IMG/VR virus record: IMGVR_UViG_3300010347_002008
Location: 1-64,000 of that record
Length of the DNA stretch: 64,000 nt
From: a virus
Taxonomy: Duplodnaviria; Caudoviricetes
Strand: one strand, 5' to 3'
The position numbers were made by a program, and so were the translations under genes. Below, one piece after another: positions 4,468 to 64,000 of the stretch (position 1 is its first letter; each line of letters begins with the position of its first letter). The notes under the pieces were generated by a model. That model was given only the letters and a program-made list of their open reading frames with translations. It searched no databases and was not told where the DNA came from.

Positions 4468-4890
4468 TTATTTATTTATTATTGGTCTCTTAAGTGCTTC
4501 TTTATAAATATTTGGATATTCTGATTTAATTTGCTTATAAATTTTTCTCCATTTAAATCCTTGATTATCTAAATCATACAAATCTCCTTCATCGATCTTA
4601 TGTATTACATCATATAAATAACCTTCTCTCATTGATTTCCATCCATCCCAACCATTAAACATTATCCAATATGATAAATTATCTAAAAAATCTTTTCCTA
4701 TAACTAAAATGTACATTTCAGAAGAAAAATTCCATACACGAGATTTTATAGCTTCTCTTTCTATAACAAAATTTATATAATGTTCTTTTAAATTTGAAGG
4801 AAAAATATCCTTAGCATTTGTAAGAATTTCTTTGTCTGATTTAGGTTTTAAAATATCTCCAATAGATTCATATATGAACTTGGCCCTCAT
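4468..4890 (-). CDS. Hypothetical protein with MRAKFIYE leader and DILKPKS motif
   Basis: ORF track; N-terminus MRAKFIYE|SIGDILKPKSDKEI. Confidence 0.8.
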   Translation of the reverse strand: MRAKFIYESIGDILKPKSDKEILTNAKDIFPSNLKEHYINFVIEREAIKSRVWNFSSEMYILVIGKDFLDNLSYWIMFNGWDGWKSMREGYLYDVIHKIDEGDLYDLDNQGFKWRKIYKQIKSEYPNIYKEALKRPIINK

Positions 4891-6716
4891 TATACGAATT
4901 TATTTTCTTTAAAATCAACAGATATAAATTGACCGCTCCAAGTTCGGTATTCGCTTGACATTGAATCAAATAATCCCCAAATAGACGGAGGTGTTACTTC
5001 TTTAAATTTTACGATCAATTTATCTTCAATAGCTCTAAAAGCCGGAAGTTGATCTTTATTATCCATTTCTCCAATATTGAAATCCTTTTCAACTCCAATA
5101 CGACCACCCATAACTTCATCTTCAAAATATAACTGTATCGCAAATTGTGATTTTTTTCCAGTATCTGTTATAAGAGCTATTGGTTCAAATTTTGGACGCA
5201 AATATTGAAACAACTCAGTTAAACTCCAAGATTGCATTAAGAAATATGCAATGACAACATCTTTATTTTCAATAGCAACTGCGTCTAGTTGTGCTTTAAT
5301 AAGATCATCGGTAAATAAAAATTTATTACCTTTCATTCTTCTTTCATTAGAAACGGAACCAATAACCACGGGACATTTCCAATTCCGATGCATAGACCTT
5401 ATATTTTCCACTTGAGAAGTTGTAAATGGACGACATTCAGTTATGTATACTACGACTTTTTCTTTTCCTTTAACAACATCTAGCATAGCAGGTTCAAAGG
5501 CCTTTTGAACAGATGCGATGACTCTCATATTGTCAATATCGGATAACTGTCTATGAGTCATTGCGCCAATAACAACATTATCAGATCTAACTTCATTGAT
5601 TGTGTTTTCTACTAATAAACCTACTTGAGGTTGGGTTTCTACTTCTTCATTAATTACATGCTTAATGACATTCACAAATGTATTGAATTTATTTACAGCT
5701 GATTCTGATAACAATCCAAATTCCTTTTTAGGTTTACGTAATGAAGATATAATAATTCTAAATAAAGCTTCATAAATTTTTCCGCCTTTCTCAAGAATAT
5801 CGATAGTTTTCTTATTTTTAATTAATAACAAATTCAATCCTCCATAATATCCATATGCTGGTGGCGTTAAATAATCTGGTTTAACACTTTCAACTATATT
5901 TGGAAATTGATCACAAAATTTATTAAAAATATCAGAGGTCAATTCTAAATACATCTCATCAGATGTTTTGCCTTCTAATACTGGAATTTGATAATTATCC
6001 ATGAATCTATTTAGATTCAAAAGTATTAAGTCATAAAAATCTCTTGACGATTCTTCTTTTTCATATGCTTCATTAAGAATATCAAATTCATATGAAACTA
6101 TTTGAGCTAGATCTTTATCCCTCTTGATTATAATGCCTTCTATAATATTTTCTTTTGAATATGTTTCTCCGAATAGACGGGTGATTGTTTTAGCAAAATT
6201 TTCATGCCATTTTTCTAGATTACCCTCAGCATAATTTTTTAATACGTTCTTTTGTTCTTCATTTAATATTCCTGCAAAAATAATTGGGGGTCTTCCAAGA
6301 CCCAATGTTGTAGCCCATTGATTTACTTCATCATACTCATAAACTTCCACAACTTTATTATTCTTACGTAAAGTGATGTCTGTTAGAACATATTTTGGAA
6401 TTTTTGAATATGGAATTCTTATAGGGCGTTCAACTGGAGTATAAGCCACTCCAAATCTTAAACCTTCAGGAAGCATAATATCTCCAATTATTGTTGATAA
6501 TTCGATAATGGCGTCTTCCCACACATTAGTTAGTGTTCTCTCAATTAGATTTAATTCAGTATTGTCCTTTTTAAAGAATACTAAATGATCTCCGTGCTTT
6601 TCAAAAAGGACTCTATAAGTATCTAACTTCTCAGTGATTATTAAATCTGAATTTAATAACTCATCGACATATTTCTCTCCTCTTTTTTCTAAGAGATACG
6701 TAAGCGTGTTTAACAT
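4890..6716 (-). CDS. RNA-ligase-like domain fused to a degenerate cytidylyltransferase-like (HIGH-fold) domain
   Basis: ITEKLDT (ligase motif I-like) and EGIIIK (motif IV-like) in the N-half; YITECRPFT resembles a degenerate GRFQPFH motif in the C-half. Confidence 0.5.
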   Translation of the reverse strand: MLNTLTYLLEKRGEKYVDELLNSDLIITEKLDTYRVLFEKHGDHLVFFKKDNTELNLIERTLTNVWEDAIIELSTIIGDIMLPEGLRFGVAYTPVERPIRIPYSKIPKYVLTDITLRKNNKVVEVYEYDEVNQWATTLGLGRPPIIFAGILNEEQKNVLKNYAEGNLEKWHENFAKTITRLFGETYSKENIIEGIIIKRDKDLAQIVSYEFDILNEAYEKEESSRDFYDLILLNLNRFMDNYQIPVLEGKTSDEMYLELTSDIFNKFCDQFPNIVESVKPDYLTPPAYGYYGGLNLLLIKNKKTIDILEKGGKIYEALFRIIISSLRKPKKEFGLLSESAVNKFNTFVNVIKHVINEEVETQPQVGLLVENTINEVRSDNVVIGAMTHRQLSDIDNMRVIASVQKAFEPAMLDVVKGKEKVVVYITECRPFTTSQVENIRSMHRNWKCPVVIGSVSNERRMKGNKFLFTDDLIKAQLDAVAIENKDVVIAYFLMQSWSLTELFQYLRPKFEPIALITDTGKKSQFAIQLYFEDEVMGGRIGVEKDFNIGEMDNKDQLPAFRAIEDKLIVKFKEVTPPSIWGLFDSMSSEYRTWSGQFISVDFKENKFV

Positions 6717-7324
6717 ATTTTTATATTTTTTAAGGTTTTTGAAATTTTTTCTTTAGATTTCAAGGAATGTTTTTTTCCAAACATTGGATTATTTTTACCA
6801 ATTGTTGCCTGTGTAATTAATTTAATTGATTCTTTTGAATGACAATGACCCTTAAATGGGGAAATTCTTCCCACTTCAGATTCACCAATTTTTCTTTTGT
6901 GATTTTCTGATAATTTTCTATTTTTTAAAGCCTCACTTAAATGTTTTTTATGTTCTTCAGTAAATTTTTTTCCTTGATGAGATTTTTTCATCTTTTCTTT
7001 GGTCAAATTAGAATGATTTTTGTTATACATTCCAATAAATTCATTAATATTTGATCCTCCTCTCTTGTTTAAATTATATCCATTTGGATATAATGTATTA
7101 TATTCATTAATATATTTTTCTTGCGCTTCATATGCTTCTTGTCTAGTATTAAATGTATCGATTACTTTTTTAATAAACTTTTCTTTTCCATATTTTTTTA
7201 TGGAATTTTTTAAATATGTTCCACTTCCTAAATACGAATCATTTGAAATGTTTTTGCAAGATCTGTCACCAACATATTGTTGGCCTGTTAATATATTAGT
7301 TGTTATATAAACGTAATGTATCAT
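6710..7324 (-). mobile_element. Free-standing GIY-YIG homing endonuclease with NUMOD3-like repeats
   Basis: HYVY...YVG, YLGSG, KYGKEKF, GYN motifs; C-terminal HS.E.K.K.S repeats and NPMFGKKH. Confidence 0.9.
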
Positions 7325-7610
7325 ATTTGACTAATTTTTAATGATTGATTTGTCCAATCCCATTTAATTGGTTCTTTTTCGCCAAAATATTTTATTTTAT
7401 AGTTCTTTAAATATTCTTCTACATCTACATAAAAGTCATCATCCCATCCATCTGCAAACCAAAATTTTAAAAATTTTCCATTAGCGCAATACCTCTTCTA
7501 TCAGGCTGTGGATGTCTAGGAGACTCCCACTTATCCCATATTGCGAATATATCATCCGCAATTCTAACTTGCTCGTTGCTCCAGCTTTCATTGATGAATT
7601 TTGCTCGCAT
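7321..7610 (-). pseudogene. MRAKFINE-leader gene split by a -1 frameshift at an A-AAT-TTT-TAA site (pseudogene, sequence error or programmed shift)
   Basis: Frame 0 gives 47 aa ending at TAA 7467-7469. The -1 frame continues LKFWFADGWDDDFYVD... to TGA 7321-7323, which overlaps the next ATG; fused length 96 aa. Confidence 0.65.
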
Positions 7611-7687: not shown

Positions 7688-8038
7688 TTATGCAAACTTA
7701 TCTAGATATTCAGGTTCAATTTTTGTTCCTCTTGCGTCCATTGCATTCATTTGTCCATCAGGACTTACTTTTACGCCGATTATTTGTCTAAAGCCTACTG
7801 TAGAATTATCAAGAATTAAATAAAAATTATAGAATACATCTTCGTCTCTTCCACCAAAACCTTTAACTATCTCTTTAATATCATCACTTCTTTTTACTTG
7901 GTAAATAGTAAATTTATCAGTTTCTTTTATAGTTTCCAGTGGTTTACCCTCAAGACGTCTTCTTATCTCATTAGTTACATCTTCTTGAGATTTTGGCTTT
8001 AGAATAGAATTGATACCTAACTGTTCTCTAACTATCAT
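7688..8038 (-). CDS. Hypothetical protein with ILKPKS motif
   Basis: Start moved to 8038 (MIVRE|QLGINSILKPKSQEDV), giving an ATGA overlap with the upstream small ORF. Confidence 0.7.
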   Translation of the reverse strand: MIVREQLGINSILKPKSQEDVTNEIRRRLEGKPLETIKETDKFTIYQVKRSDDIKEIVKGFGGRDEDVFYNFYLILDNSTVGFRQIIGVKVSPDGQMNAMDARGTKIEPEYLDKFA

Positions 8039-8154
8039 TTCTTTTTTCCTCCACAACAACCGCGCATTCGTACAACCTTAGTAGAAACAGGTTTTGGAGG
8101 TGCGGGTTTTGGTTTAATATTTTTCTTGGTAATTACCCGTAATAATCTTCTCAT
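8035..8154 (-). CDS. 39-aa basic Pro-rich peptide ending GCCGGKKK
   Basis: Hand translation MRRLLRVITKKNIKPKPAPPKPVSTKVVRMRGCCGGKKK; fills the gap exactly and is translationally coupled to the next gene. Confidence 0.6.
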   Translation of the reverse strand: MRRLLRVITKKNIKPKPAPPKPVSTKVVRMRGCCGGKKK

Positions 8155-8961: not shown

Positions 8962-9027
8962 AATAAGAATTTTATTTTATATATTATATATTATTCATCA
9001 AAAAGTGAAAGTTCTCCTGAATTTTTT

Positions 9028-11050: not shown

Positions 11051-11072
11051 TTAAAGCTTTATTTTATATATT

Positions 11073-17699: not shown

Positions 17700-17849
17700 C
17701 TATTTTTTAACAAATTTTTTGGTTGGTTTTTTACCTTTAAATGTTATTATAAAGTAGATGAATTTTACCATATTCCATGCCATTGCACCTAGTAAAATAG
17801 CAAAAAATATGTAAACTGGTATGAACCAAGGATTTTGTAATTCAAACAT
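17700..17849 (-). CDS. 49-aa membrane peptide
   Basis: Hand translation MFELQNPWFIPVYIFFAILLGAMAWNMVKFIYFIITFKGKKPTKKFVKK; hydrophobic core, basic tail; overlaps the upstream stop. Confidence 0.6.
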   Translation of the reverse strand: MFELQNPWFIPVYIFFAILLGAMAWNMVKFIYFIITFKGKKPTKKFVKK

Positions 17850-18246
17850 CTTCAAAAATTTTTTTTAAAATTTTATCTTTGCCTATCATGATGGCAGTCA
17901 ATCCTAAAGATCCTCCTTCAAGTATAGCAAATTCTTCTCCATAAATAAGTGCTTTATTAAAGCAACTTCCTCTTACAGTAAAATCAACTTTTTTTCTAAC
18001 TGAGTTTGTCATAAAACACCTTTGTACTAAAGTTCTGTATAATGAATTTTTATCACTTATAATATATATGTTGTCAGCCAGTTCATCTAGTTTTGATATT
18101 ATATACGCATATGTTTTTAGTTCCCTCTTTACAGGTTTATAATCTTGAATGAATTTTTTTAATGGATACGCATCTTTTAAATATTCATTAATAGATTGTT
18201 CTATTTGTTCTTTTGTTTTAGGAACTAAAATATTTTCTATGCTCAT
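17842..18246 (-). CDS. Hypothetical protein with variant motif (ENILVPKTKEQI)
   Basis: ORF track. Confidence 0.75.
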   Translation of the reverse strand: MSIENILVPKTKEQIEQSINEYLKDAYPLKKFIQDYKPVKRELKTYAYIISKLDELADNIYIISDKNSLYRTLVQRCFMTNSVRKKVDFTVRGSCFNKALIYGEEFAILEGGSLGLTAIMIGKDKILKKIFEDV

Positions 18247-20216
18247 GAGCCAAATCTAAAAAAGCCAATAATTCTAAGAAGAGGTGTAAAGCTCCCTGTC
18301 AATTTAAGTATTTTTTCATTATATTGAAAAACAATTCCTTCTACAGGAACAACAGAATGAATTCCTCCTGACTTTTCAAGACGCTCAAGATGCTTAACCA
18401 TCTCTTTTATTTTTTTGTTAAATGCTTCAACACCTTCTACATCTTTTTTCTCCATAAAATGTTTTAGATGATCCATTGCTCTACTTAATTTGTCTTGAAT
18501 ACTTTTAGTAGCCTTATCGGAATCCATGGTAGCAAGTCCTTCTAGGTTTTTTAGAACCGTTACTCCTAGGGTTGTGAATATGTCAACAAATGGTTCTAAT
18601 ATAGATTCTGTAAGATCCTTTACATCTTTCTCCTGTTCTTTAACCCATTTTTGTAAATCCTCGGATTTATCTTTTAATAATTTGTTTATTGTTATAGTTT
18701 TATCTCCTTTCCCCCAACGTTTAGCAAGAGTTTGTTTAAATTCTTCATCCGCCTCTTCGGGTAAATTTTTATCAATATACTTTCTTGTTTCTGCTTCTAT
18801 ATAATCGGCTATTGTTGATGTATCTTCTAAATTGTTATCAGTTTGAAGTACCATTAATTTACGAATCAATCCTTCTCCTATATTATTTGAATCTGTTATA
18901 TATTTTATAATTAGAGGATCTGTTTTTTTGATTAAGAAAGTATTATCTACTTCTCCTTCACGTTGTAGTCTATCTATTTCTTCTATTAATTCAGTAAGTT
19001 TTCCTTTTTCAATTATCTTAACGATTTTGCCGTCTTTATCTAATTCTCTTAAATGATGAATTCGTAATTGATTTCTTTCATAAGGAATTACATTCTCATT
19101 ATCAGTATAAAGAATTTCTATGTTTAACCAACGCACGCCTTCTCCAAAAATCTTTTTAAGGTTTATATGTGTTGAATCAAAAATATTTTGAAAATCTTCC
19201 ATTGCAGCAACGAACGCCTTTCTTACACTTTCTGGGGATCCTCGATCAGTAAAATAATAATCCATCTCATCAATGTCCATGGCTTCTTCACCAAAATTTT
19301 TTAAATGTTTGGTTGAACGTGCTGAATATACTACTCCATCTCTACATGTAATTAAGATGTTTTGACCATCTAACTTTTCAGTTATATTTTCTAACTCGCC
19401 ATGAAGAGATTTATTTATAATATCTCTTAATTCTTCAAACGTTAAATCTGAAGCTTCCCATATATTTTGTATGTGTCCTGCTGCTCCGCCCATTTCGTAA
19501 ATTCCTTTTATTGTTTTATATTTGTCTGATGGATAAATATCTTCTTTTCCTGTTCTAACACCTTCGCCAGCTTCTTCTAAATCATCAGGAAATACCGGGA
19601 AATCTGCCTCTTTATTATCTGATTTATTTAATGCATCCCAAATAAATTTTATCTTTTTATCGGGTAATTGCGGGTAATTTTCTTTAAATTTTTCATAATC
19701 TCCAGAAGCTAAATCTTCTCTAGTTCTTGTTGCAGAAATTGGTTCTCCATTAGAATAAGTTAATGGATCTGCGTTTATGAGTAGCTCTACAATTTCAACC
19801 CCCTTTGGAAGATTTTTCCCAAACTTTTCAGGAGAATAATTATTTACGAATTCTTTAACACGCTTATAATCGTTTCCCTTTGTTGAGGAAGCTAAAGCAT
19901 ATTTTCCAGGAGTTCTCTCGGGTTTTTCAATCCAGCGATAACATGATAAAATTGGAGAGTACGAATCTTTATCTAATACTACATCAACATTCATTCCAGA
20001 TAAAACATTTCGAGCAATATAATATGCCGTATCCGCAGAAATATCATCTCTTTTTCCTGGACTTATAAATAAAACAACCTTCTTAACTTCTGGTTTTTCT
20101 AAATATCTTTTAATAAAATCAATATGAGCCCCTGTAAGAGGTTTAAAACCTCCTGGATAAAGGATCGTAATCCTCTCTAATTTATCACCATATTCCTTAA
20201 GAGATTCAAATTTCAT
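18243..20216 (-). CDS. Cytidylyltransferase-like (HIGH-fold) domain fused to an RNA-ligase-like domain (DUF6267-like, from memory)
   Basis: YPGGFKPLTGAH and ISATRTRE in the N-domain; YE|MGGAAGH, ITEKLDGQN, EGIVF...KLTG in the C-domain. Confidence 0.65.
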   Translation of the reverse strand: MKFESLKEYGDKLERITILYPGGFKPLTGAHIDFIKRYLEKPEVKKVVLFISPGKRDDISADTAYYIARNVLSGMNVDVVLDKDSYSPILSCYRWIEKPERTPGKYALASSTKGNDYKRVKEFVNNYSPEKFGKNLPKGVEIVELLINADPLTYSNGEPISATRTREDLASGDYEKFKENYPQLPDKKIKFIWDALNKSDNKEADFPVFPDDLEEAGEGVRTGKEDIYPSDKYKTIKGIYEMGGAAGHIQNIWEASDLTFEELRDIINKSLHGELENITEKLDGQNILITCRDGVVYSARSTKHLKNFGEEAMDIDEMDYYFTDRGSPESVRKAFVAAMEDFQNIFDSTHINLKKIFGEGVRWLNIEILYTDNENVIPYERNQLRIHHLRELDKDGKIVKIIEKGKLTELIEEIDRLQREGEVDNTFLIKKTDPLIIKYITDSNNIGEGLIRKLMVLQTDNNLEDTSTIADYIEAETRKYIDKNLPEEADEEFKQTLAKRWGKGDKTITINKLLKDKSEDLQKWVKEQEKDVKDLTESILEPFVDIFTTLGVTVLKNLEGLATMDSDKATKSIQDKLSRAMDHLKHFMEKKDVEGVEAFNKKIKEMVKHLERLEKSGGIHSVVPVEGIVFQYNEKILKLTGSFTPLLRIIGFFRFGS

Positions 20217-21969
20217 TTTTTGATTCGTTTAATTTTGTCAAATTGTATTTTTCTATATTCTCTGACAAATATTTTAAAAATGGATAGTAATTATTTGATA
20301 CATATGTTTCCGAATCTTTATAGTTTGGGTTAGCTGTCAATATTTGTTTATTTCTTTCTTTATGCATTCTTAAAATACCATCATCAACTAAATCATCAAC
20401 AAATTTTAGTCCAAATTGATCTCCGCGAGTCACCCTAAAATCAGATCTATCAATTTGTCTATCAGTTCCGTCTAACAAACGTAATACTGCCTTCACATGA
20501 CTTGGCGGATAATGACTATTTTTATGATGATTAATATAATCTATTGCTTTTACGAAGAATAAAAATTGATTACGTTTAATTCTTTCTTGAACAATTCTAA
20601 ATATAGATTTATGGGATAGTTTATAATATAATAATTCAATTATTTTTTCAAAGAAATATTTGTTATGAAGAAACTTAAACTCTTTCTCCATCTGTATCAT
20701 TTCTTTGTGTCCCTGCCCCGAATATTTAGGTAAAACATATGGAAGATGTCCATATTTATTCATTAACTCTCCATACTTGGCCTCATCTAATATTTTCTGA
20801 TAATCTTCAGACGAAATATAATCTAATATCCAATCACTATAGGATTTGGCTAGATTAGTTGCTCTCCATCTATTTTTCAAATTTGTTTTAGCAGTATCGA
20901 TGATAGTTTGTCTAACCTTTTCTTTAGGTAAAAGTTTTAACACTCCTGATCTGTGCAATTTTTCTAAATCATATAATGTTAAGTTCTCTTTTTCAATATA
21001 CTCATTTGCATCTTTAATAACGTCTTCTTCTGCTTTTGGTTTCAAGACATCATTTATTCCTTCAACAAGAAAAGGGTATTTTTCTGCCACCTCCAATGGC
21101 AGATCTTGTTTCATGCTCTTGAGATTAACTTGAAACTTGGTCATTATTTCGTTTAACCTAGCTTTATGAATAAAATCTTTTCTATGAATTATTTCCCATA
21201 ATGTTTCAAAAGAATTAGCAGAATCAGGTTTATAACCATCTCCTAAGGCAATATCAACTACATCTTGTGGATCATTTGTGATGAATTCTGATCCTAAAAC
21301 TGTACCTTTTTGAACTATATTTCCCTTTTTGCCCATAAAAGATCTCTTAATGTTCCAAACTCCAGTCGGAAACCTTATGGCTAATGAAGTATATTCTTCT
21401 GCCTGCCCCTCAAATAATTTAGTAACTTCTTTTGTGGATTCTGAAACTAGAGCCATTAACAGTGCATTTCTTGTGGCTCCTTTATATTTTGATTCCCCTT
21501 CTGCGAGATTTGGTGAATGATACATAAATTTAGCCCATTTTAAATCAGGAGAAGGCATTAAATCTACTTGAGCATATCCTTTTGATTCATCACCACATAT
21601 AGGAACTTTGACAGATACTTGGTCAAATCCTTTTAAAAGTGTAGTTTCAAAACCATGTTCTTCATTCAATATTTGATTAATGGCTTCTGAAATTTCTTCA
21701 AATTTCATTCCATTATCCAAAAATCTTTTCGCATCAATAGCTACATCAATATCTCCAGATTTTTCCCCTTTAGGTTTTTTTCCATAAGATCCTATTGGAA
21801 GTGCTTCATTTCTTTCAATAAAAATAAGCGGAAGAATGTTTAGTTCTACCCATTCATATGTTGGTTGAACTTCATCTGTTTCTAATGGACGAACGTTCTT
21901 AACAGCTTTGCCACCCATCTTTTTTATCTTTTTTAATGTGTTAAAAATGTTATTTAAATATTGACCCAT
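20206..21969 (-). CDS. Pol-beta-family nucleotidyltransferase with a second domain after an internal KPK motif
   Basis: GSYG...SGDIDVAID and AQVDLM catalytic-type motifs; internal VE|GINDVLKPKAEEDV. Confidence 0.7.
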   Translation of the reverse strand: MGQYLNNIFNTLKKIKKMGGKAVKNVRPLETDEVQPTYEWVELNILPLIFIERNEALPIGSYGKKPKGEKSGDIDVAIDAKRFLDNGMKFEEISEAINQILNEEHGFETTLLKGFDQVSVKVPICGDESKGYAQVDLMPSPDLKWAKFMYHSPNLAEGESKYKGATRNALLMALVSESTKEVTKLFEGQAEEYTSLAIRFPTGVWNIKRSFMGKKGNIVQKGTVLGSEFITNDPQDVVDIALGDGYKPDSANSFETLWEIIHRKDFIHKARLNEIMTKFQVNLKSMKQDLPLEVAEKYPFLVEGINDVLKPKAEEDVIKDANEYIEKENLTLYDLEKLHRSGVLKLLPKEKVRQTIIDTAKTNLKNRWRATNLAKSYSDWILDYISSEDYQKILDEAKYGELMNKYGHLPYVLPKYSGQGHKEMIQMEKEFKFLHNKYFFEKIIELLYYKLSHKSIFRIVQERIKRNQFLFFVKAIDYINHHKNSHYPPSHVKAVLRLLDGTDRQIDRSDFRVTRGDQFGLKFVDDLVDDGILRMHKERNKQILTANPNYKDSETYVSNNYYPFLKYLSENIEKYNLTKLNESKNEI

Positions 21970-21983
21970 TTTTTTGCTTATAT

Positions 21984-22640
21984 TTATTTCTTTTTAAAAG
22001 GTTTTGATTTGACAATACTATTTTTGTTTTGTTCTTTCTTTTTTTCTTCTAAATTTACAACTCTTCGAATTAATTCATCTTTTTGACCATCTTTATGATA
22101 TGAATAAACCCCTTTAACAAACAACACATCAAATGGCTCATCTAAAATTTTTTTATATTTTTTTCCTGTTCCTTTTTTTACATATGCTATTGTCATGTGT
22201 GGTTCATATTTTGGAAAGGTTTGTGTATTTGGAAATGATTTCATAAACATATCACGATAAGTCTGTAGTTGTGCTGTTACAGGAACATTATATTTTACAA
22301 CATCATATTCAGGATTTTCAAAAATATCAATCTCTTTTATTTGTACTTTGACTGGTTTTAGTTTTTGTTCCATCATGTCAACAATAACAGATGGGTCAAT
22401 TTCATCTTCATGAATTCCATATAAAATAGTTATATGAGGATTTTCTTCTAATCCATAAGAATCATCACTAGGTTTTATAAAAACATCGTCTTCTTCAATT
22501 CCGTTTAAATGGTTTTCTTTCCAATCTTTAATTTTATTTGGTTCCATCATGACACAACCATAAACTTGTTCTTCTTGATTTTTCTGTTCAAGAAGCCAAT
22601 TATCAATAGTTAAAAATTTAGTCTTCATCATCTTCTTCAA
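21984..22640 (-). CDS. 2H phosphoesterase (LigT/Acb1-like fold)
   Basis: Two HxT motifs: PHITILYG and PHMTIAY. True start probably 22628-22631. Confidence 0.85.
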   Translation of the reverse strand: MKKMMKTKFLTIDNWLLEQKNQEEQVYGCVMMEPNKIKDWKENHLNGIEEDDVFIKPSDDSYGLEENPHITILYGIHEDEIDPSVIVDMMEQKLKPVKVQIKEIDIFENPEYDVVKYNVPVTAQLQTYRDMFMKSFPNTQTFPKYEPHMTIAYVKKGTGKKYKKILDEPFDVLFVKGVYSYHKDGQKDELIRRVVNLEEKKKEQNKNSIVKSKPFKKK

Positions 22641-23844
22641 AATCTGGGAAATTTGATTTAAAATCGTCTCTTACATTTATTTCTTCATCATCGGTTATTT
22701 CTAATAACTTACTCTCTAATTCACTAGTAAATTCCCTTGGATCAGTATATAATGTGGTTTGTAATTGCGAACCATCTGTATTCATATAAAAGAAATCTGA
22801 ATTTATTTCGGAATATCCGGATGCCTCATATTCATATTCTCCTGTTTTAATATTAACTATAAATTTTATGTATGTAGTTAATTGTAAATCTGAACCATCA
22901 TCTTTATAAAAATTGAATACTAAGTTATCTCCTCTTAAAGAAATTGCATCTTTTTCAAAGACCCCTCCTGTGGCTGGGTCAGAAACTCCTTCACGAATGA
23001 ATTTTAATATTCCTCCTGCTTGTTCAATAGCCTTCTCCATTTCTTCAGGAGATTTCGGTTTAAATACTTGTTCTGCTACACCTTCTGTTAATTCGTCTAA
23101 ATATTGAATTGCATATTTTAAAAATAATTTATAAGCCTTTCCTCCCAATTCTTTATATGTTTTTAATAATGGATGATCCGGTGGTCTTCTTAGCATTCTT
23201 CCTCTGAACATGGGGGGTCTCATCATTTCTGGAGGCGGCATCATACCTCTTGGAGGTGGGGGCATTCTCTTAGGTGGTCCTGGTTCATATGAAGCATCCT
23301 TTAACATTTTTAATATATCTTCTTTTGAATGAAACTCCGACATTTCTTGTACAAAACTAAAAGCCATGGCCATTATTTCTTGTTTATTTCCAAAATAATC
23401 TTCTTTGGTTTTAAATGTAGGGTTTTGTTTAACTTTCATTCTATCAACTTGTTGCAAGTGTATAGTTTCGTGCCCAAATCCAGACCACAGTCTATTCAAT
23501 AGAGAATCTAATCTAGCTCTAGACATCTTAACAATCTTATCATCAAAAGTTTTATCAACATAAAGAGTAATTTTATTTGTTGAGGGGTCAAATCCTAATA
23601 AACGGATTCCTGCTTCAGGAACCATATTAGCTTTTTGAAATTCTCTTTTTTCTTCTGCAGGAATTGCAGCCATGTGTTCGTCAAAATCAACAAGACCTAT
23701 ACCCAATGGATTTAATTGTTGATTCAAATCATAAAATGGATCCCATGTTTCAGATGTTGCTACATTGACAAAAATCTCCTTAAATTGATTAAACAGATTT
23801 TCACTGGGACTTATTTTTGCTTCATTTATAAATTTAGCTCTCAT
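22618..23844 (-). CDS. MRAKFINE-leader protein with HExxH zincin-like motif, Pro/Met-rich linker and second domain
   Basis: GHETIHLQQ...QEIMAMA; PPKRMPPPPRGMMPPP; internal TE|GVAEQVFKPKSPEEM. Confidence 0.6.
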   Translation of the reverse strand: MRAKFINEAKISPSENLFNQFKEIFVNVATSETWDPFYDLNQQLNPLGIGLVDFDEHMAAIPAEEKREFQKANMVPEAGIRLLGFDPSTNKITLYVDKTFDDKIVKMSRARLDSLLNRLWSGFGHETIHLQQVDRMKVKQNPTFKTKEDYFGNKQEIMAMAFSFVQEMSEFHSKEDILKMLKDASYEPGPPKRMPPPPRGMMPPPEMMRPPMFRGRMLRRPPDHPLLKTYKELGGKAYKLFLKYAIQYLDELTEGVAEQVFKPKSPEEMEKAIEQAGGILKFIREGVSDPATGGVFEKDAISLRGDNLVFNFYKDDGSDLQLTTYIKFIVNIKTGEYEYEASGYSEINSDFFYMNTDGSQLQTTLYTDPREFTSELESKLLEITDDEEINVRDDFKSNFPDFEEDDED

Positions 23845-23880
23845 TAATCAAAGACTTTATTTTATTTATTCAAAATAAAA

Positions 23881-26395: not shown

Positions 26396-26662
26396 TTAGA
26401 TATTTATATTATAATAATTTGACATCAAAGTTTTGATTTCATCTATTAATTCTTCTTTAGATAAATTACTAAAGAAAATTTGAGGAGTCATTTTAATAAG
26501 TTCAGCCTTAGATATTAATTTATCATGATAAAGTTGCTCAGCAAAATTCCATAGAATATCTGCTAGTTGAATTTCATCTAGTTTTTCAAGATCCTTAATT
26601 TTAATATTTGATTTAGGTTTTAAAATATCTTCTAATTTTTCAATAACAAGTTTGGTTGACAT
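26396..26662 (-). CDS. Hypothetical protein with leader and DILKPKS motif
   Basis: MSTKLVIE|KLEDILKPKS. Confidence 0.75.
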   Translation of the reverse strand: MSTKLVIEKLEDILKPKSNIKIKDLEKLDEIQLADILWNFAEQLYHDKLISKAELIKMTPQIFFSNLSKEELIDEIKTLMSNYYNINI

Positions 26663-26982
26663 TATCTAAATTTATTTGGAAATATAGTTCTCCATTCATG
26701 CCCTCTAGGAACATCAGAAACCTTAACACCAAAAATTTTCTGTTCAGGACACGGATCATTACCATCTATTAAAAAATTATTGTTGCAAGCCCAAGTTTCT
26801 ATGTTTCTGCTTATTCTCTGTCCTACATTAAATGGAAATCTAATTCGTGAATTTAAATTATCTACTCTAGATATTCGTCCATCAAGATTTTTATACACAA
26901 CAAAAGACAATGATGGATTTATTTTATGTGTAAAAGTAATTTTAACATCACTAAATCCTTCATTTACAAGTTTGGCTCTCAT
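26662..26982 (-). CDS. Hypothetical protein with MRAKLVNE leader
   Basis: ORF track. Confidence 0.8.
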   Translation of the reverse strand: MRAKLVNEGFSDVKITFTHKINPSLSFVVYKNLDGRISRVDNLNSRIRFPFNVGQRISRNIETWACNNNFLIDGNDPCPEQKIFGVKVSDVPRGHEWRTIFPNKFR

Positions 26983-27977
26983 TATAATTTAAATTTATTT
27001 TCATCAATAAATTTTCTTAAATCATCAGGAATTTCATCATTATGAGCATAATCTTTGTTCCACATATATTTAGGAATATAAACAGCCCATACTCCAGATC
27101 CTTCTTGATGTTGATATTGATGTGCTGCTCTAATTTTCATCATCGGAACTTGTGATAAACTACCTGAATCATATTTATTTAATTTAACTAAATTTTCAAT
27201 TCCCATTCTTCTTTTATGAACTGTTTCTCCGCCAATTTCCTTTTCAATAAATTCAGGATAACCGATAAAAGCATATACATCATAATATTCATCTCTTAAA
27301 GCTTCTTCTTCAGAACGAGTTTCTCTATATAAAGATAATTTTAACTGTTCAATATCCTTCTTGTTAAATAATTTATTATCTCCATATCTTCCACTCTCAG
27401 GGATAGTTATGTTTGCAGCTTTGTCAAGTATGTTACTTCTTCCATATTTTTCTCCCATTTCATGAATTAATTCTTGAAGATTATCAACTTCTCGACGATC
27501 TATAGCTCCTTTAATTTTAAATAGAAGCATTATTTGATTTGTTTCTGGGTCAACTCTTGGGTCATCTTCAACATCTCTAAATAAGTCAGGCCATGATTTA
27601 AAGAACCTCCAAACTAACATAGCCTTTTCATTAAAATCTTTTTTGTTTAAAATATAATCTTTTAATTCCTTTAATAACCCATCATCTTTCATTCCTGAAA
27701 AAATATCAGGGAGTTGTTTTTCAATTTCTTCAATATAATTGACTTTTTCAATAACATCAATTTTTTGTAATTCTTTCTTTACTTCATTCCTAATATCTGC
27801 AACAACTTCAGGCTGCTGTAAAAGACCTTTATACATTTGCCCGTGTTGTTTCTGCATCTGTTGAATCCTTTTAATTTTTTCAGATACAGACATGTTTTTA
27901 ATTTGATTTAAAACCTCCACTGCTGTTTTTGGTTTTAAAATATCTCCTAAGGCCTCATATACTTTTTGTGCTTTCAT
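26982..27977 (-). CDS. Helical hypothetical protein with leader and DILKPKT motif
   Basis: Start moved from 28022 to 27977 (MKAQKVYE|ALGDILKPKTAVEV), removing the overlap with the upstream gene. Confidence 0.75.
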   Translation of the reverse strand: MKAQKVYEALGDILKPKTAVEVLNQIKNMSVSEKIKRIQQMQKQHGQMYKGLLQQPEVVADIRNEVKKELQKIDVIEKVNYIEEIEKQLPDIFSGMKDDGLLKELKDYILNKKDFNEKAMLVWRFFKSWPDLFRDVEDDPRVDPETNQIMLLFKIKGAIDRREVDNLQELIHEMGEKYGRSNILDKAANITIPESGRYGDNKLFNKKDIEQLKLSLYRETRSEEEALRDEYYDVYAFIGYPEFIEKEIGGETVHKRRMGIENLVKLNKYDSGSLSQVPMMKIRAAHQYQHQEGSGVWAVYIPKYMWNKDYAHNDEIPDDLRKFIDENKFKL

Positions 27978-27987
27978 ACTAAAAATA

Positions 27988-28776
27988 TTATTTATAAACA
28001 TATCCTGCAATATGTCCTCCATAAGGAAGTATTAATTCTCTCATCCATTTCAAAGGAACATAATCAACCATTTGCCAACGCCCAATATTATTTCCATTTT
28101 GGTCATGATAGAAATTTTGTATTTGGCCAATTTGATAACTAGGTTTGGTGCCAGTTGTAAATAATAATCTATAATTAAAGAACTTTCTTTTTGTTAAATC
28201 AATTTCTTCTTTGGGTTTTGGCTTTAATATACTTGAAATTCCAGTTGATGGTGTTTCAACTCCTTGTAAATGAGTATAATCATGACCCTTTGGATCCACC
28301 CATACTTCCACAGTACTATCAGGTTCCCATGTATCATAAACATTAAAAAGTGGACATTCGCCTGTTCTTAAATCAACTTTTCCCAGAGGAAGTATAGCAT
28401 TTCCTCTAAATCGACCACTTCTTCCTGAAACTTGGATCAGTATATAATGTGGTTTATATTGTTGTTCTTTAGGAAGTTTACTACCTAATATTGGATGATC
28501 TTTAAGAACCTCAAGTCTTTCAGCCGGTGGAGGCCCTTCATATCCTAATTCCTTTGCTTTATCATAGAATATTTGAACTATTTCATTCCAACCACCATAA
28601 ACCTCTGCAGCAGCTTCTGCTCTTCCAATTGCCTTATTAACATTAGTAAGAGTTTTTGCCATTTGACGTGCCAATGCAACTTCTTTTTCAAAATCTCCTC
28701 CAGATTTCTTAGCAAAGTCCTTCACACGTTTAAGATCTTTTGGTTCGTATGCTTCATTTACAAATTTAGCTCTCAT
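27988..28776 (-). CDS. Hypothetical protein with MRAKFVNE leader and internal ILKPKP motif
   Basis: ORF track. Confidence 0.8.
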   Translation of the reverse strand: MRAKFVNEAYEPKDLKRVKDFAKKSGGDFEKEVALARQMAKTLTNVNKAIGRAEAAAEVYGGWNEIVQIFYDKAKELGYEGPPPAERLEVLKDHPILGSKLPKEQQYKPHYILIQVSGRSGRFRGNAILPLGKVDLRTGECPLFNVYDTWEPDSTVEVWVDPKGHDYTHLQGVETPSTGISSILKPKPKEEIDLTKRKFFNYRLLFTTGTKPSYQIGQIQNFYHDQNGNNIGRWQMVDYVPLKWMRELILPYGGHIAGYVYK

Positions 28777-29158: not shown

Positions 29159-29938
29159 TTAAAAATCATCATCATCTTCATAATTCCCAAAATGTGGTTC
29201 TCTTCTTTTGTTTCCAACACCAATCGAGTGTTTAGTAAGTAGAATATCCAAAACATCATTAACCTCTTCCGGATTTTCAGTTTCAAAATATTCTTTTAAG
29301 GCTTTATCAAATTGTTCATCATTTATATAATCTAAAAAATATTCAATTACATTTTGTTGATAAGGTATTAATTCTCTAATAATTTGTCTTAATTGTTCAG
29401 GCTCCATTTTTTCCATTAGAACCTCTACAAATATTTCTTCATCTGCCCCTGCATCTATTAAATATCTTACAACATCTTCAGGATTCATAAATTTATCTTT
29501 AACCGCCCGCATTTTTTCTTCAGCATCATATTGGTCAAGATACTTTTGAATGTCTTCTTTAGATTTGGGTTTCAAAACATCTGTAATAGATCCCTCGTTA
29601 ACCTCTTCTTCATATTGAACAAATCTTTCAAGAATATCTACGGCTTTGTCTAAATCTATTTGTTCAATATCATATCCTAATTGTTCAAGTGTACGGATAG
29701 CTAATCTTTCTAATTCTGATCTATCGCGAACATAATAATCTCTCAATCCTGCTGCAGCAGCATCACGTAATTGCCATTGCCACCAAGTTTCATCCATATT
29801 TAACTTAGCTTCTTGGTTCAATTCCCATTTAAATATGGGATCTTGCCATTGCCACCAAGTTTCATCCATATTTAACTTAGCTTCTTGGTTCAATTCCCAT
29901 TTAAATATGGGATCTTCAGTTACATGTTTTGCTCTCAT
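29159..29938 (-). CDS. Acidic protein with MRAKHVTE leader, 24-aa duplication and internal VLKPKS motif
   Basis: ORF track. Confidence 0.8.
   Translation of the reverse strand: MRAKHVTEDPIFKWELNQEAKLNMDETWWQWQDPIFKWELNQEAKLNMDETWWQWQLRDAAAAGLRDYYVRDRSELERLAIRTLEQLGYDIEQIDLDKAVDILERFVQYEEEVNEGSITDVLKPKSKEDIQKYLDQYDAEEKMRAVKDKFMNPEDVVRYLIDAGADEEIFVEVLMEKMEPEQLRQIIRELIPYQQNVIEYFLDYINDEQFDKALKEYFETENPEEVNDVLDILLTKHSIGVGNKRREPHFGNYEDDDDF
29771..29914. repeat. Perfect 72-bp tandem duplication (in frame)
   Basis: 29771-29842 is identical to 29843-29914; encodes DPIFKWELNQEAKLNMDETWWQWQ twice. Confidence 0.95.
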
Positions 29939-30255
29939 CCTAAAGCTCTTTTCATTAATTCATCTGTGATTTCATTCACATGATCTTGTAAAATATCACT
30001 TAAAATCCAATGTATTTTTTCATTGTTTGTTCTTCTCGAGGAACCACTCCAAAAAGAAATATAAGTATCAATTAAATCTTGGTCATCAATTCCTCTCTCA
30101 ACAAATTCATCATACAATTTTTTCCAGTTTTCTCCAAATAATTCTACAACAATGGCATATTTATTCGTTATTGATCCTTTATCTATTAATTCTTCTACAA
30201 TCTTTTTTGGATCCTTAGGTTTTAATATGTTAATGCTTTCTCTTACTAATTCCAT
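29935..30255 (-). CDS. Hypothetical protein with ILKPK motif
   Basis: MELVRE|SINILKPKDPKKI. Confidence 0.75.
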   Translation of the reverse strand: MELVRESINILKPKDPKKIVEELIDKGSITNKYAIVVELFGENWKKLYDEFVERGIDDQDLIDTYISFWSGSSRRTNNEKIHWILSDILQDHVNEITDELMKRALG

Positions 30256-38003: not shown

Positions 38004-38047
38004 ATTTACTTTATTTATATATTTTATTTATAAAAACATATCATCTA

Positions 38048-58354: not shown

Positions 58355-58378
58355 ATTAAATAGTTTTTATTTTATTCA

Positions 58379-59878
58379 TTAAGTAACTACAACTGTTATA
58401 TTGGATCCAGACTGTGTGTTAAGGCTTCTATAGGTATAAAAGTTTTCTGTATATGGAACTGCAGTTAAGTTTGTGACTAATAAGGATGATTCTAAGAATG
58501 TCGTAGCAAATCCACCAACAGTAAAGGCCGTTGCTTGTCCAAATCTTGTAGGATAACAATACCAGATATATTCTCCCCCACCATTTGCTATTGTAAATGT
58601 TCTTCCTCTCGCAGTTGCTAAAGCACTTGTATCAAGACCAGTAACATCAGATGATTCACCAAATGAAGTTTGTGGATCTGTGCCCCAATAAGCCTTATTT
58701 TGACCAGTAATAGTATTTGTGGCGCTTGCGCTTCCTGCAACTCTTAAATAATCTAATGATGAAGAAGGAACGCCTTTATTATTATAATAAGTACCTGTTC
58801 CTGCGCCCCAGCTTGCATTTACCGTCCATGTATTTGTTCCAAGAGCAATTGAAACGTCTGTAGGATTATGAGTTTGTGTATTTGATGTAGCCGTATAAAC
58901 ACCATCAACAGTATTTCCAGGAATTCTAAATACAAATTGCAAAGCTGCTCCTGTTAAGCTTCCATCAGTTGTTCCATCACCATTCGTTATTCTACCTGAG
59001 TTATATGTAGCAGTTAATGTTGGACCATATAATGTACCAACTTCTAAGGTTCCACTTATACCACTTAATCCTAAACTGTTTAAAAGTCCTACAGTTGCAT
59101 CTACAGTTGGGAACAATAAATCAGTCCAAATTTCATCATATGTTTTACCCCTTAAACCACCAGCTGACGTATCCTTTGGTATACCTCCTACAGCCACAGG
59201 CATTATAATATTATCAGCTACTGTTGGAGTATATCTTGATGTATCGGTTGTTGATACAAAAATACTTACATCAATTTTACCATCTACCCAATATAAACCA
59301 TATCCAATTGATGATGATTTTACAAATTGATCAAGTCCATAAACAGATCCCAAACTAACTTCAAGAGATCCATTATTCCAAACAAAATCATCACTTAATG
59401 AAGCATTTGGAATAAAAGCTGCTCTAATATATGCTAAAGATGAATCTTGAACAACTTGCCATGCTGATAAATTTCCTAAAGATGTATCAAGTCCTTGATT
59501 CCATACAGTTAAATTTCCTAATGAAGTTTCATGGTTTGAAACCCACGAATTTAAACTACTGATAGAACTATCTCTAAGTTGTAATGATCCATCAACATAA
59601 GCTAATGTTACTCCTCCGGGATTAAATAGCTCCCAAGTTGTTCCATTCAATTGATACATAGTTCTTGCACCTCCATTTGAAGCAGAACTAAGAACATATA
59701 CTAACATACCATCTTCTTTTCTATCAGAATATGTAGTTAGCAATAAGTTTCTTGAAGTGTCATTGGCAACGATATGTAAACCTCCTCGAATTTCATTCGC
59801 AAATGCAGAGGCAAATACGTCGGTATCAGCCCAAGGGCGAATCGCTGCTATAACTAATGTTCCTGAATTATTTGCCAT
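58379..59878 (-). CDS. Tail fibre-like protein sharing domains with both neighbours
   Basis: N-terminus like 56717-58354; short coiled coil; C-terminal VGGIP...GKT...LLFPTV to QSG.NI domain like 59903-61759. Confidence 0.7.
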   Translation of the reverse strand: MANNSGTLVIAAIRPWADTDVFASAFANEIRGGLHIVANDTSRNLLLTTYSDRKEDGMLVYVLSSASNGGARTMYQLNGTTWELFNPGGVTLAYVDGSLQLRDSSISSLNSWVSNHETSLGNLTVWNQGLDTSLGNLSAWQVVQDSSLAYIRAAFIPNASLSDDFVWNNGSLEVSLGSVYGLDQFVKSSSIGYGLYWVDGKIDVSIFVSTTDTSRYTPTVADNIIMPVAVGGIPKDTSAGGLRGKTYDEIWTDLLFPTVDATVGLLNSLGLSGISGTLEVGTLYGPTLTATYNSGRITNGDGTTDGSLTGAALQFVFRIPGNTVDGVYTATSNTQTHNPTDVSIALGTNTWTVNASWGAGTGTYYNNKGVPSSSLDYLRVAGSASATNTITGQNKAYWGTDPQTSFGESSDVTGLDTSALATARGRTFTIANGGGEYIWYCYPTRFGQATAFTVGGFATTFLESSLLVTNLTAVPYTENFYTYRSLNTQSGSNITVVVT

Positions 59879-61779: not shown

Positions 61780-61830
61780 ATATCCACTCTCTATCAAAAC
61801 TTCCTCCATGGGAAAAATATATAGATAAAC
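61780..61830. promoter_or_regulatory. Divergent late-type promoter pair
   Basis: GATATATAAATAA on the minus strand (about 61781-61793) and AATATATAGATAA on the plus strand (about 61816-61828). Confidence 0.5.
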
Positions 61831-61861
61831 ACTTAGTATTAACGCAAAAACTAAAATAAGT

Positions 61862-63097: not shown

Positions 63098-63110
63098 CAC
63101 TCCCTTTTTT
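63087..63110 (+). terminator. Rho-independent terminator
   Basis: AGGGAGT-TTAAC-ACTCCCT followed by TTTTT. Confidence 0.8.
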
Positions 63111-63141
63111 ATTTTGAATAAATAAAATAAATCGTTGATCA

Positions 63142-64000
63142 ATGCAAGCTAACTTTGTATACGAAGCTTTACAAGATATATTAAAACCTAAATCCAAGGA
63201 AGAAGTTACCGCGGCTTATAAAAAAATCGAAACCGATAAGGCTTTAGAATTGGCGGTGGAACATAAAAATTTAGAAGGGGTTTTTGATGCTTTACGAAGA
63301 GGAGCTTCATGGAATAAAAATGATTCTTATCAGAGTTTAGAAGATAGTTTGCTTTTATTTTTGTCAAAAAATAAACAAGAAATTTTATCAGGTAATCCAT
63401 CCCATAAAACATTAGGTGTTTTATTAAAGCGGGCTTCTCAAAACGGATTTATTGATTTAATTAAATGGGCTTTAGACAAAGGGGCCCCTATAAATTTTCA
63501 AGATCAAAATGGAAGTACTCCACTTTATTATGCTGCTAAGTATGGTCATTTTGAAGCCCTTAAATTTTTGATTGAAAACGGGGCAGATTTAGAATTAGAA
63601 AATAATGAAGGGTTTACTCCCCTATTAGCATCATTAAATCCTATTCAAACCGGACCAAATTCTAATTTCATAAATCCGCAAAGTGTGTGGTATTTAATTG
63701 ATAACGGTGCTGATATAACCCATAAATTAAAAAATGGGTCCAGCATTTATGTATTTTTAAAAGGAAAATTATTGGATAGATTTTTGGATGAAACAGATTT
63801 AAAACCTAGTGATGAAGAAACGATTTATATAATTCATCGAGGTTCCATTAAAAATATAAAAAAATTATTAGATAAAGGATATTTAGATCTAAATAAACCC
63901 ATATACATTAAATATTCCAAATGGGACAACAAACCCAATAAACCATTACTGCCAATAGATCATATTAAATTTGAGGATGAAACAGGACCAGGAAAAATGA
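63142..64000 (+). CDS. Partial ankyrin-repeat protein with leader and DILKPKS motif
   Basis: Hand translation MQANFVYE|ALQDILKPKSKEEV...; ankyrin repeats GSTPLYYAAKYGHFEALKFLIENGAD and GFTPLL; open to the window end. Confidence 0.85.
   Translation, partial: MQANFVYEALQDILKPKSKEEVTAAYKKIETDKALELAVEHKNLEGVFDALRRGASWNKNDSYQSLEDSLLLFLSKNKQEILSGNPSHKTLGVLLKRASQNGFIDLIKWALDKGAPINFQDQNGSTPLYYAAKYGHFEALKFLIENGADLELENNEGFTPLLASLNPIQTGPNSNFINPQSVWYLIDNGADITHKLKNGSSIYVFLKGKLLDRFLDETDLKPSDEETIYIIHRGSIKNIKKLLDKGYLDLNKPIYIKYSKWDNKPNKPLLPIDHIKFEDETGPGKM

Follow-up and report, generated by a model that had tools for sequence, protein, structure and literature searches.

A conserved K-P-K peptide behind Glu sites as a candidate capsid-cargo tag of an uncultured T4-like jumbo phage

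In phage T4 the capsid targeting sequence (CTS) of the internal proteins IPI, IPII and IPIII and the short propeptides of gp24 and Alt are removed by the S77 prohead protease gp21 (PMC3012670, PMC5694885). Similarly, the ejection and inner-body propeptides of phiKZ, 201phi2-1 and SPN3US are processed by the protease gp175/gp245 at the motif S/A/G-x-E, and SPN3US gp53 and gp54 have the N-terminus MANFVKSKLARESVE in common (PMC5694885). The phage analysed here, through the first 64,000 nucleotides of its 79.9-kb contig (the window), resembles both systems in part. As in the T4 CTS, a short N-terminal leader ending in hydrophobic-x-Glu is found on diverse, fast-evolving accessory proteins, and the start of T4 gp24, MAKINELLRE|S, resembles M-K-A-K-F-V-N-E|S of this phage. 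The portal of the phage is also of the T4 type, and its relatives have the S77 protease and the Gp23 capsid protein. Comparable to the leaders here, many head proteins of phiKZ and SPN3US, paralogues included, have common N-terminal propeptides that are cleaved behind a Glu, in some cases at more than one site; the gp53/gp54 N-terminus resembles the starts MQANFVYE... and MKLVKESVED... of this phage. In contrast, the T4 signal precedes the cut and is discarded, with nothing conserved after it, while here D-I-L-K-P-K-S follows the predicted cut and would be retained. Unlike in T4, multi-unit proteins also have the signal inside the chain, where one unit gives way to the next, and it is carried by about one gene in seven, compared with a handful in T4. 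The phiKZ/SPN3US propeptides, often longer than 100 residues, are discarded as well, and a retained tag and chains of unrelated units are not described there. Cleavage and packaging are demonstrated for T4, whereas this phage is known from sequence alone.

A profile of the tag, built from an alignment of the copies and run over the window, matches at exactly 13 places with 25–48 bits, and nothing else exceeds 8 bits; all 13 copies of the original prediction were recovered where it had listed them. The back-translated [IV]-L-K-P-K core is observed 11 times against 0.34 expected from dinucleotide-preserving shuffles, none of 100 reaching 11, and 1000 rounds of residue shuffling within ORFs yielded 0.17 on average and never more than 3. 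In this shuffle test, proposed together with the prediction, the core would be rare by chance (about 0.2–0.3 expected against 11 observed). The codons of the tag vary synonymously, with CCT, CCA, CCC and CCG for Pro, ATT and ATA for Ile and TTA, TTG, CTT and CTA for Leu, and the mean nucleotide identity between copies over its 21 codons is 53%. Selection therefore acts on the peptide, as had been claimed. The Glu site claimed ahead of the motif is present in most copies, lying 4 residues before the core and with a hydrophobic residue two positions before the Glu. N-terminal and internal copies both occur as described, although their division had to be corrected: given likely start codons, 8 of the 13 are true N-termini (4890, 8038, 18246, 26662, 27977, 30255, 31031 and 63142) and 5 are internal (21048, 23067, 28230, 29578 and 30626). 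The whole contig holds 25 copies.

The copies lie on the minus strand, except the one at 63142 on the plus strand, and are given here as tag, profile span and score. The leader MRAKFIYE followed by the tag opens the 140-aa protein at 4468–4890 (4825–4890; 4798–4890; 48.2 bits), and the leader MKAQKVYE with the tag (27912–27977; 27885–27977; 40.5 bits) opens the ORF at 26982–28022, whose likely true start is 27977. The likely start of the ORF at 7688–8059 reads MIVREQL...SILKPKS (7976–8038; 7955–8044; 31.8 bits). N-terminal tags are also carried by the 88-aa protein at 26396–26662 (26597–26662; 26573–26662; 30.7 bits) and, with the short spacer MELVRESINILKPKD, by the 106-aa protein at 29935–30255 (30199–30255; 30175–30255; 25.5 bits). 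The ORF at 17842–18246 displays a short form directly at the Met, MSIENILVPKT, without a preceding Glu site (18202–18246; 18175–18246; 31.4 bits). The protein at 30246–31031 starts with the variant MFVKESLEDILQPKPKSEI (30975–31031; 30951–31031; 36.7 bits) and has a second tag, LSE|NVKEVLKPKS, between two predicted domains (30597–30647; 30567–30653; 40.1 bits). On the plus strand, the leader MQANFVYE with the tag (63142–63207; 63142–63237; 42.9 bits) opens an ankyrin-repeat protein of ~621 aa that extends past the window and has 2 further internal tags at contig positions 64165 and 64579. The remaining copies are internal. LVE|GINDVLKPKA occupies residues ~300–317 of the 587-aa protein at 20206–21969 (21019–21069; 20992–21072; 28.8 bits), while LTE|GVAEQVFKPKS (23038–23088; 23014–23106; 29.9 bits) belongs to the 408-aa protein at 22618–23844, which has an MRAKFINE leader at its start, an HExxH motif and a Pro-rich linker. 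The 262-aa protein at 27988–28776, starting MRAKFVNE, has a weak Glu site (GVE...SSILKPKP; 28201–28251; 28171–28263; 32.3 bits), and the 259-aa protein at 29159–29938, starting MRAKHVTE, contains VNE|GSITDVLKPKS (29549–29599; 29525–29617; 38.7 bits). None of 10 tagged window proteins reached curated Pfam cut-offs, and two weak matches fell below threshold.

The motif profile search that the prediction had called for, run on metagenomic proteins, returned 466 clusters (E<=1e-3; 1.84 billion representatives searched), single proteins carrying as many as 9 copies; a near-identical 260-kb relative holds 65 copies. The full tag of ~17 residues reads hydrophobic-N-E-S-hydrophobic-x-D-[IV]-L-K-P-K-S-x-E-E-I. 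Over 321 copies, P3 is I/L/V in 63%, P2 is N in 45%, P1 is E in 83–92% and P1' is S/G/A, followed by the consensus x-D-[IV]-L-K-P-K-S-x-E-E-I. Conservation is strongest after the Glu, in D-[IV]-L-K-P-K-S-x-E-E-I, and in the K-P-K part Pro reaches 100% and Lys 98%. The N-terminal tags are preceded by a leader of the type M-[KR]-A-K-F-[VI]-[NY], which continues E-[SAN], with E in 92% and [VI] at P3 in 82%. Internal copies retain hydrophobic-N-E-S while the rest of the leader decays. Copies are separated by a median of 138 residues, and 131 of the 321 (~40%) lie at extreme N-termini, some directly after the Met. Some genes begin Met-S-I-x-[DN]-I-L-x-P-K, without the Glu site; their start nearly coincides with the predicted cut, and loss of the Met would leave them with the N-terminus of cut tags. 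Two established rules do not fit these sequences. The strict T4 CTS rule, with targeting only in the removed leader, conflicts with the invariant Pro after the Glu and with the Met-direct forms, which keep the handle without a leader. The phiKZ/SPN3US cleavage motif, with a small P3, does not match the I/L/V at P3 in 63% of internal copies or the V/I in 82% of N-terminal ones.

The units behind the tag are non-homologous, ~140 residues long (120–170) and occur singly or chained. Their folds differ, including ankyrin repeats, GNAT, an all-alpha domain and an alpha/beta domain, among others. A Pfam census of 133 tagged proteins, 43 of them with ankyrin repeats, gave cargo domains only (ankyrin, GNAT and similar) and none for the tag. 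The units are not basic and their pI is no different from that of other proteins; the T4 internal proteins are basic. In 644 pairs of homologous units, one member stands behind an N-terminal tag and the other, in a different protein, behind an internal tag; the tag thus marks the start of autonomous units. In an AlphaFold2 model of the protein at 30246–31031, residues 1–17 and 130–139, covering both tags, have pLDDT below 50, and helices begin at the Ser after K-P-K. The tag is accordingly predicted to be unfolded, and S-x-E-E-I, as the start of the first cargo helix, is consistent with an N-cap. The idea of a domain-opening signal exposed by proteolysis was thus upheld in part, in that the tag opens autonomous units, is predicted to be unfolded, is selected as a peptide and has a Glu site fitting the T4-type rule. 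Tag-only remnants also occur, as a 30-residue ORF at contig position 68177 and as clusters of 29–54 residues.

The phage has a T4 gp20-type portal, gp32 and UvsW. In the nearest relative with a complete genome, the genes for an S77 protease and the Gp23 capsid protein lie beside the portal gene, and relatives with a 39–42% identical portal have the S77 gene next to it. In 58 distinct S77 homologues from related phages the protease domain is directly followed by [RT]-[VIL]-N-E-[SAQ]-[YFL]-G, in which [VIL]-N-E-[SAQ] is invariant; T4 gp21 has I-T-E-S at the same column of a MAFFT alignment. The capsid protein of the S77-bearing relatives begins M-x-x-L-I-N-E-[AS]. The Glu site of the tag fits both the T4-type rule L/I-x-E and this S77 boundary motif. 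In contrast, the relatives lack the K-P-K half at their protease and capsid-protein sites, and the tag profile has no match to capsid N-termini, so the role of the K-P-K half is purely one that we infer. A search for PF03420 in the 260-kb relative and 10 further tag-bearing fragments, all from incomplete genomes, gave no match, and neither an active prohead protease nor a major capsid protein was found for the clade, the 260-kb relative being ~64% complete. A single S77 homologue came to light in the clade (L027:9804–10388, phrog_207); with Arg/Pro where T4 gp21 has Ser-Ser, it lacks the Ser nucleophile, and in the 260-kb relative it looks frameshifted.

Leaders of the tag type stand at the start of 57 of the 316 genes of the 260-kb relative, against 2.7% at internal Met positions, and are also found on many proteins without K-P-K. 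A promoter-like motif, ATAAATAAAATAAA, lies at 63118–63131 on the plus strand, 24 nt upstream of the start codon of the tagged gene at 63142, and on the minus strand ahead of the genes starting at 58354, 38003, 23844, 11050, 8961 and 4453. The genes that share it, at a distance of 21–28 nt upstream of the ATG, comprise ~10 with a leader or tag, a tail-tube-like gene and one for a collagen-like fibre; as judged from a few structural genes only, it would be a late promoter.

In a sister clade the handle is replaced. The loci of phages with a 49–76% identical portal (L173–L194) contain 35 tags of the form FERG-x-DPK, with the same leader and Glu site, and none of the KPK type, while F-E-R-G-x-D-P-K has 0 matches in the contig and in the 260-kb relative. 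Each lineage has one tag or the other, KPK occurring at a portal identity to this phage of at least 77% and FERG at 49–76%. Like KPK, the FERG tag lies directly behind the leader and hydrophobic-x-E|S, at N-termini and internally, ahead of variable units, and it differs in the handle, N-F-E-R-G-x-D-P-K-x-x-M-x-I-G. This split suggests a co-evolving, phage-encoded reader.

We assign a probability of roughly 0.45 to the KPK peptide being a portable, cut-and-keep capsid-cargo tag of an uncultured T4-like jumbo phage, a variant of T4 capsid targeting whose cleavage, packaging and receptor we infer. The first half, hydrophobic-N-E|S, would be the cutting site of a T4-type (S77) prohead protease, and the second half, hydrophobic-x-D-[IV]-L-K-P-K, would remain attached after release and give the protein a flexible handle at its N-terminus. 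Each cargo unit would carry one tag and be encoded singly or in a polyprotein. The tag genes may be expressed together with the late structural genes, and, as the prohead assembles, the handle may then dock each unit to a partner inside it that is specific to the lineage. Leaders would subsequently be stripped and chained units split by the protease, and the freed pieces would enter the next host along with the DNA. A larger claim is more tentative: a programmable system that loads, cuts free and injects any tagged protein, with dozens of effector modules unrelated to one another, many of them joined into true polyproteins, a retained handle behind the head-protease site and interchangeable lineage dialects co-evolving with a prohead receptor. 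If true, the clade would package a large, rapidly reshuffled protein kit, taking up about one gene in seven and far exceeding the small set of internal proteins in T4, and deliver it along with the DNA, and a tailed phage would use polyproteins for packaged cargo; to our knowledge, polyproteins in tailed phages are known only as head-maturation cleavage. The tag would then allow the proteins that uncultured jumbo phages inject to be catalogued from sequence alone, lead to new counter-defence or host-takeover effectors and, at 17–22 residues, be a possible tool for loading foreign proteins into large capsids, while the KPK and FERG dialects would form a natural experiment for finding the receptor. 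Even if the cargo reading is wrong, KPK is an unusually strong undescribed linear motif, with 466 clusters.

The same conservation and predicted disorder would be expected of an uncleaved linear motif whose partner would be a hub in the cytoplasm, of phage or host origin, such as a chaperone, a compartment or a factory for replication or transcription, its likeness to a protease site being incidental and multi-unit proteins simply carrying several copies. This explanation is unlikely, though it deserves serious weight: most tagged units are domains that bind proteins, ankyrin repeats among them, an active protease was not found in the incomplete genomes of the clade, and the dialects, which imply a co-evolving reader, are silent on its location. 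Against it, internal copies retain hydrophobic-N-E-S as the leader decays, and this equals the protease-boundary motif of the relatives; many proteins that lack K-P-K start with a leader of this type, and tag genes and tail genes have the promoter-like motif in common. Less probable again is a linker and helix cap without any reader, spread with gene cassettes by recombination between tag coding sequences and kept for folding or expression. Units do shuffle at the tag, the AlphaFold2 model fits a linker plus the start of a first helix, and tag-only remnants occur, but a linker needs neither the near-invariant K-P-K, maintained over 321 copies despite synonymous drift, nor the conserved hydrophobic-N-E-S, and its wholesale exchange for an equally conserved peptide in the sister clade is unexpected. 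The two invariant lysines and the proline could also be plausible sites for an enzyme modifying Lys, Pro or a nearby residue, one maturase serving many precursors; this is improbable, as no family is consistently beside the tagged genes in 22 tag-bearing contigs, a weak test given that these are largely collinear. Co-translational separation by ribosome skipping or stalling, like the 2A peptides of eukaryotic viruses and with no need of a protease, would explain a short conserved peptide with an invariant Pro between units but is barely credible, since D-[IV]-L-K-P-K-S does not fit D-[VI]-E-x-N-P-G-P, skipping is purposeless at the 131 extreme N-termini, and we know of no such mechanism for bacterial ribosomes.

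In the 22 contigs, the commonest untagged neighbour of the tagged genes resembles a GIY-YIG homing endonuclease, its sequence being judged by eye. Phage P1 packages DarB, a methyltransferase-helicase that protects the injected DNA and whose loading depends on other Dar proteins, not on a shared linear tag. A similar architecture, taken as a lead only and with no sequence relation to the tag, is found beside the portal of the 260-kb relative, where a 1425-residue helicase and Eco57I-type methylase protein has the leader-type start MIVCES.

All 13 copies of the KPK tag, a peptide of about 17 residues made of a Glu site and a K-P-K half, that the original prediction had placed in the window are real and correctly positioned; under a profile built from them they score 25–48 bits, and nothing else in the window matches. 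The back-translated core was observed 11 times in the DNA versus 0.34 expected from shuffling, while shuffling of the residues yielded 0.17 on average and at most 3 in 1000 trials. Codons of the conserved residues differ freely among copies, which upholds the proposed synonymous variation, and with likely start codons the claimed N-terminal and internal placements account for 8 and 5 copies, respectively. The tag occurs 25 times on the 79.9-kb viral contig of which the window is part and 65 times in a 259,840-bp IMG/VR relative, G001. Searching 1.84 billion representative proteins with the profile returned 466 clusters at E ≤ 1e-3, with 45–51 bits for one tag copy and up to nine copies per protein; 10 of 10 clusters looked up are of metagenomic origin. 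Searches of full-text literature for ILKPK-, LKPKS-, DILKPK- and FERG-type strings gave chance matches only, a comparative review of jumbo phages makes no mention of such a tag, and a Pfam scan of 10 tagged window proteins returned nothing useful.

The window has a G+C content of 30% and encodes a UvsW-type helicase, a gp32-type single-strand-binding protein and, at about 32–62 kb, tail-fibre proteins. G001, with an estimated completeness of 64%, is 90–99% identical across the entire contig and additionally carries a T4 gp20-type portal, a large terminase, a tail sheath and a tail-tube-like gene. Together these genes identify the phage as an uncultured T4-like jumbo myovirus. Remote matches are to Lak megaphages, Flavobacterium phage MaF61 and the 462-kb uncultured phage LR756500.1, the closest complete relative (portal about 40% identical); the cultured or complete relatives MaF61, LR756500.1 and Lak-A2 contain no tag.

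Across 321 copies the internal consensus reads [ILV]-N-E-S-[IVL]-x-D-[IV]-L-K-P-K-S-x-E-[ED]-I, in which the Pro is conserved at 100%, the second Lys at 98% and the Glu at 83%. N-terminal copies display an extra M-[KR]-A-K-F-[VI]-[NY] leader ahead of the Glu; in internal copies the leader positions are unconserved and the hydrophobic-N-E-S is conserved. Gene starts of the type Met-[SAG]-I-x-D-I-L-K-P-K, free of the Glu site, also exist (for example at 18246 in the window). Conversely, the minus-strand gene starts at 28776, 26982, 23844, 29938, 7610 and 4438 carry the leader without the K-P-K half, reading MRAKFVNE, MRAKLVNE, MRAKFINE, MRAKHVTE or MKVKRINE, and three of these genes have the K-P-K tag internally, behind the first domain. 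Copies within one protein are spaced by a median of 138 residues. In the AlphaFold2 model of the 30246–31031 protein (mean pLDDT 76) both tags lie in segments with pLDDT below 50 and set apart all-alpha and alpha/beta domains, with helices starting at the Ser that follows K-P-K; Foldseek returned no PDB match for either domain of this model.

The first half of the tag resembles a head-protease site. T4 gp21 cuts by the rule L/I-x-Glu, which the Glu site fits, and the proteases of T4 and giant phages all cleave after Glu (PMC5694885). In LR756500.1 an S77/S80 protease and a Gp23-family capsid protein adjoin the portal, and among 80 fetched homologous protease loci 58 distinct sequences present [RT]-[VIL]-N-E-[SAQ]-[YFL]-G directly behind the protease domain, the position at which phiKZ-type proteases cleave themselves (PMC5694885). 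T4 gp21, when aligned with MAFFT, shows I-T-E-S in the corresponding column, the capsid protein of the relatives begins M-x-x-L-I-N-E-[AS], and T4 gp24 begins MAKINELLRE/S. From this boundary motif, the gp21 column and both N-termini, hydrophobic-N-E/S is most likely what the protease of this group recognizes, and the first half of the tag is that same site. Leader-type starts occur in 57 of 316 G001 genes, versus 2.7% at internal Met positions, and about half of the 57 contain K-P-K. The T4 gp23 sequence N-K-W-K-P-L-L-E had suggested that the tag mimics the capsid-protein N-terminus, an idea rejected on negative profile scores for 68 capsid homologues, T4 gp23 and gp24.

Neither an active protease nor a capsid gene of the KPK clade turned up. 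PF03420, PF04586 and PF07068 gave nothing convincing in G001 or 10 other fragments, the gene following the portal is not a protease, the flanks of 42 portal loci contain neither gene, and 80 S77 loci from IMG/VR contain no tags. Iterated searching yielded only an S77/phrog_207 homologue in the tag-bearing clade (L027:9804–10388, plus strand, E = 3e-13), small and situated among replication genes, in which the serine nucleophile is missing and Arg-Pro stands where T4 gp21 has Ser-Ser; its G001 counterpart at 186440–186990 appears frameshifted. It may be a dead paralogue by analogy with SPN3US, where one has been noted (PMC5694885). The head module probably lies, as we assume, within the missing third of the genome. 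Adjoining the G001 portal, L070:12950–17227 (minus strand) encodes a 1425-residue protein with ResIII helicase and Eco57I-type methylase domains and a leader-type start, MIVCES; the architecture recalls DarB of phage P1, a packaged anti-restriction protein.

The reading we favour, at a probability of roughly 0.45, is that of a capsid-cargo tag that is cut and kept: the prohead protease would trim off leaders and separate chained units at the Glu site, and the K-P-K handle, retained on every unit, would dock it to a prohead component. The nearest described system is the capsid targeting sequence of T4 internal proteins with its gp21 processing. Unlike in T4, the conserved part lies after the cut and would stay on the protein, the tag is also internal in multi-unit proteins, the scale is far larger and lineage-specific dialects exist. 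Internal proteins of T4 are basic; a similar basicity of tagged units was looked for and discarded, their pI being no different. Complex prediction for a relative's S77 protease domain with the tag scored 0.00, a result that counts neither for nor against the reading. A docking motif acting uncleaved in the cytoplasm, under which the resemblance of the Glu site to protease sites would be incidental, is less likely.

Comparison of pieces from 398 tagged proteins, split at the tags, revealed 644 homologous pairs in which the unit stands behind an N-terminal tag in one partner and behind an internal one in the other. The cargo domains are mutually unrelated; ankyrin repeats occur in 43 of 133 tagged proteins and GNAT domains in two, and most have no family. 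Tag-only remnants also exist, as library clusters of 29–54 residues holding nothing but the tag. Unit pairs, unrelated cargo and remnants thus indicate that the tag opens units that are autonomous and can be exchanged, rather than surviving as a relic of one ancestral domain. Ankyrin repeats, the commonest cargo, are unusual for phages; one such protein of about 621 residues (63142–63999 and beyond, plus strand) has three tags. The tag also lies within the 587-residue protein 20206–21969 and within the protein 22618–23844 (minus strand), whose first domain contains an HExxH motif (GHETIHLQQ) and is followed by some 40 residues of Pro/Met/Arg-rich linker, then by the tag and by a second domain; the protein, which lacks a Pfam match, may be a metalloprotease. 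At 29159–29938 (minus strand) an exact 24-residue tandem duplication (DPIFKWELNQEAKLNMDETWWQWQ) immediately follows the MRAKHVTE leader. Just past the window, a 30-residue ORF (L001:8177–8269, contig 68177–68269) consists of leader and tag alone; a separate small membrane-protein gene comes next, and another IMG/VR contig has this mini-ORF too. A gene judged by eye to be GIY-YIG homing-endonuclease-like (YVY..T....KQYIG.HS) occurs in many copies, interspersed between tagged genes in G001 and in tag-bearing loci (e.g. L054, L071:3179–3916).

The tag differs between lineages. KPK tags occur in portal loci whose portal is at least 77% identical to that of G001, and are absent from loci and 43–74 kb contigs with 49–76% identical portals. 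The latter group (sister-clade portal flanks, L173–L194) carries 35 copies of N-F-E-R-G-x-D-P-K-x-x-M-x-I-G, N-terminal and internal, with the same leader or Glu site in front; none occurs in the window's contig or G001. That the two handles occupy one slot and exclude each other speaks for a co-evolving reader that the phage encodes, and against either a generic linker or a host target that is conserved. It is probable, and much safer to state than the cut-and-keep reading, that the tag is a portable linear motif which a phage factor specific to the lineage reads. A linker without any reader, low-confidence tag segments between domains notwithstanding, is improbable; a site recognized by a modifying enzyme, for which no consistently linked enzyme family was found in 22 tag-bearing, largely collinear contigs, is still more so, and ribosome skipping is very unlikely.

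No single upstream DNA motif is shared by every tagged gene. A subset has ATAAATAAAATAAA, of which G001 contains about 25 copies (≤1 mismatch), placed 21–28 nt upstream of the ATG in about 20 genes, including the tail-tube-like gene beside the sheath, about 10 leader or tag genes and one gene for a collagen-like fibre. Within it lies ATAAATA, the core of the T4 late promoter TATAAATA, and ATAAATAAAATAAA may be a T4-type late promoter. Shared by tag and structural genes, it suggests co-expression of the two and nothing further. With ≤1 mismatch allowed, ATAAATAAAATAAA is found in the window on the plus strand at 63118–63131, before the gene start at 63142, and on the minus strand at 58366–58379, 38018–38031, 23856–23869, 11058–11071, 8971–8984 and 4462–4475, before the gene starts at 58354, 38003, 23844, 11050, 8961 and 4453, respectively.
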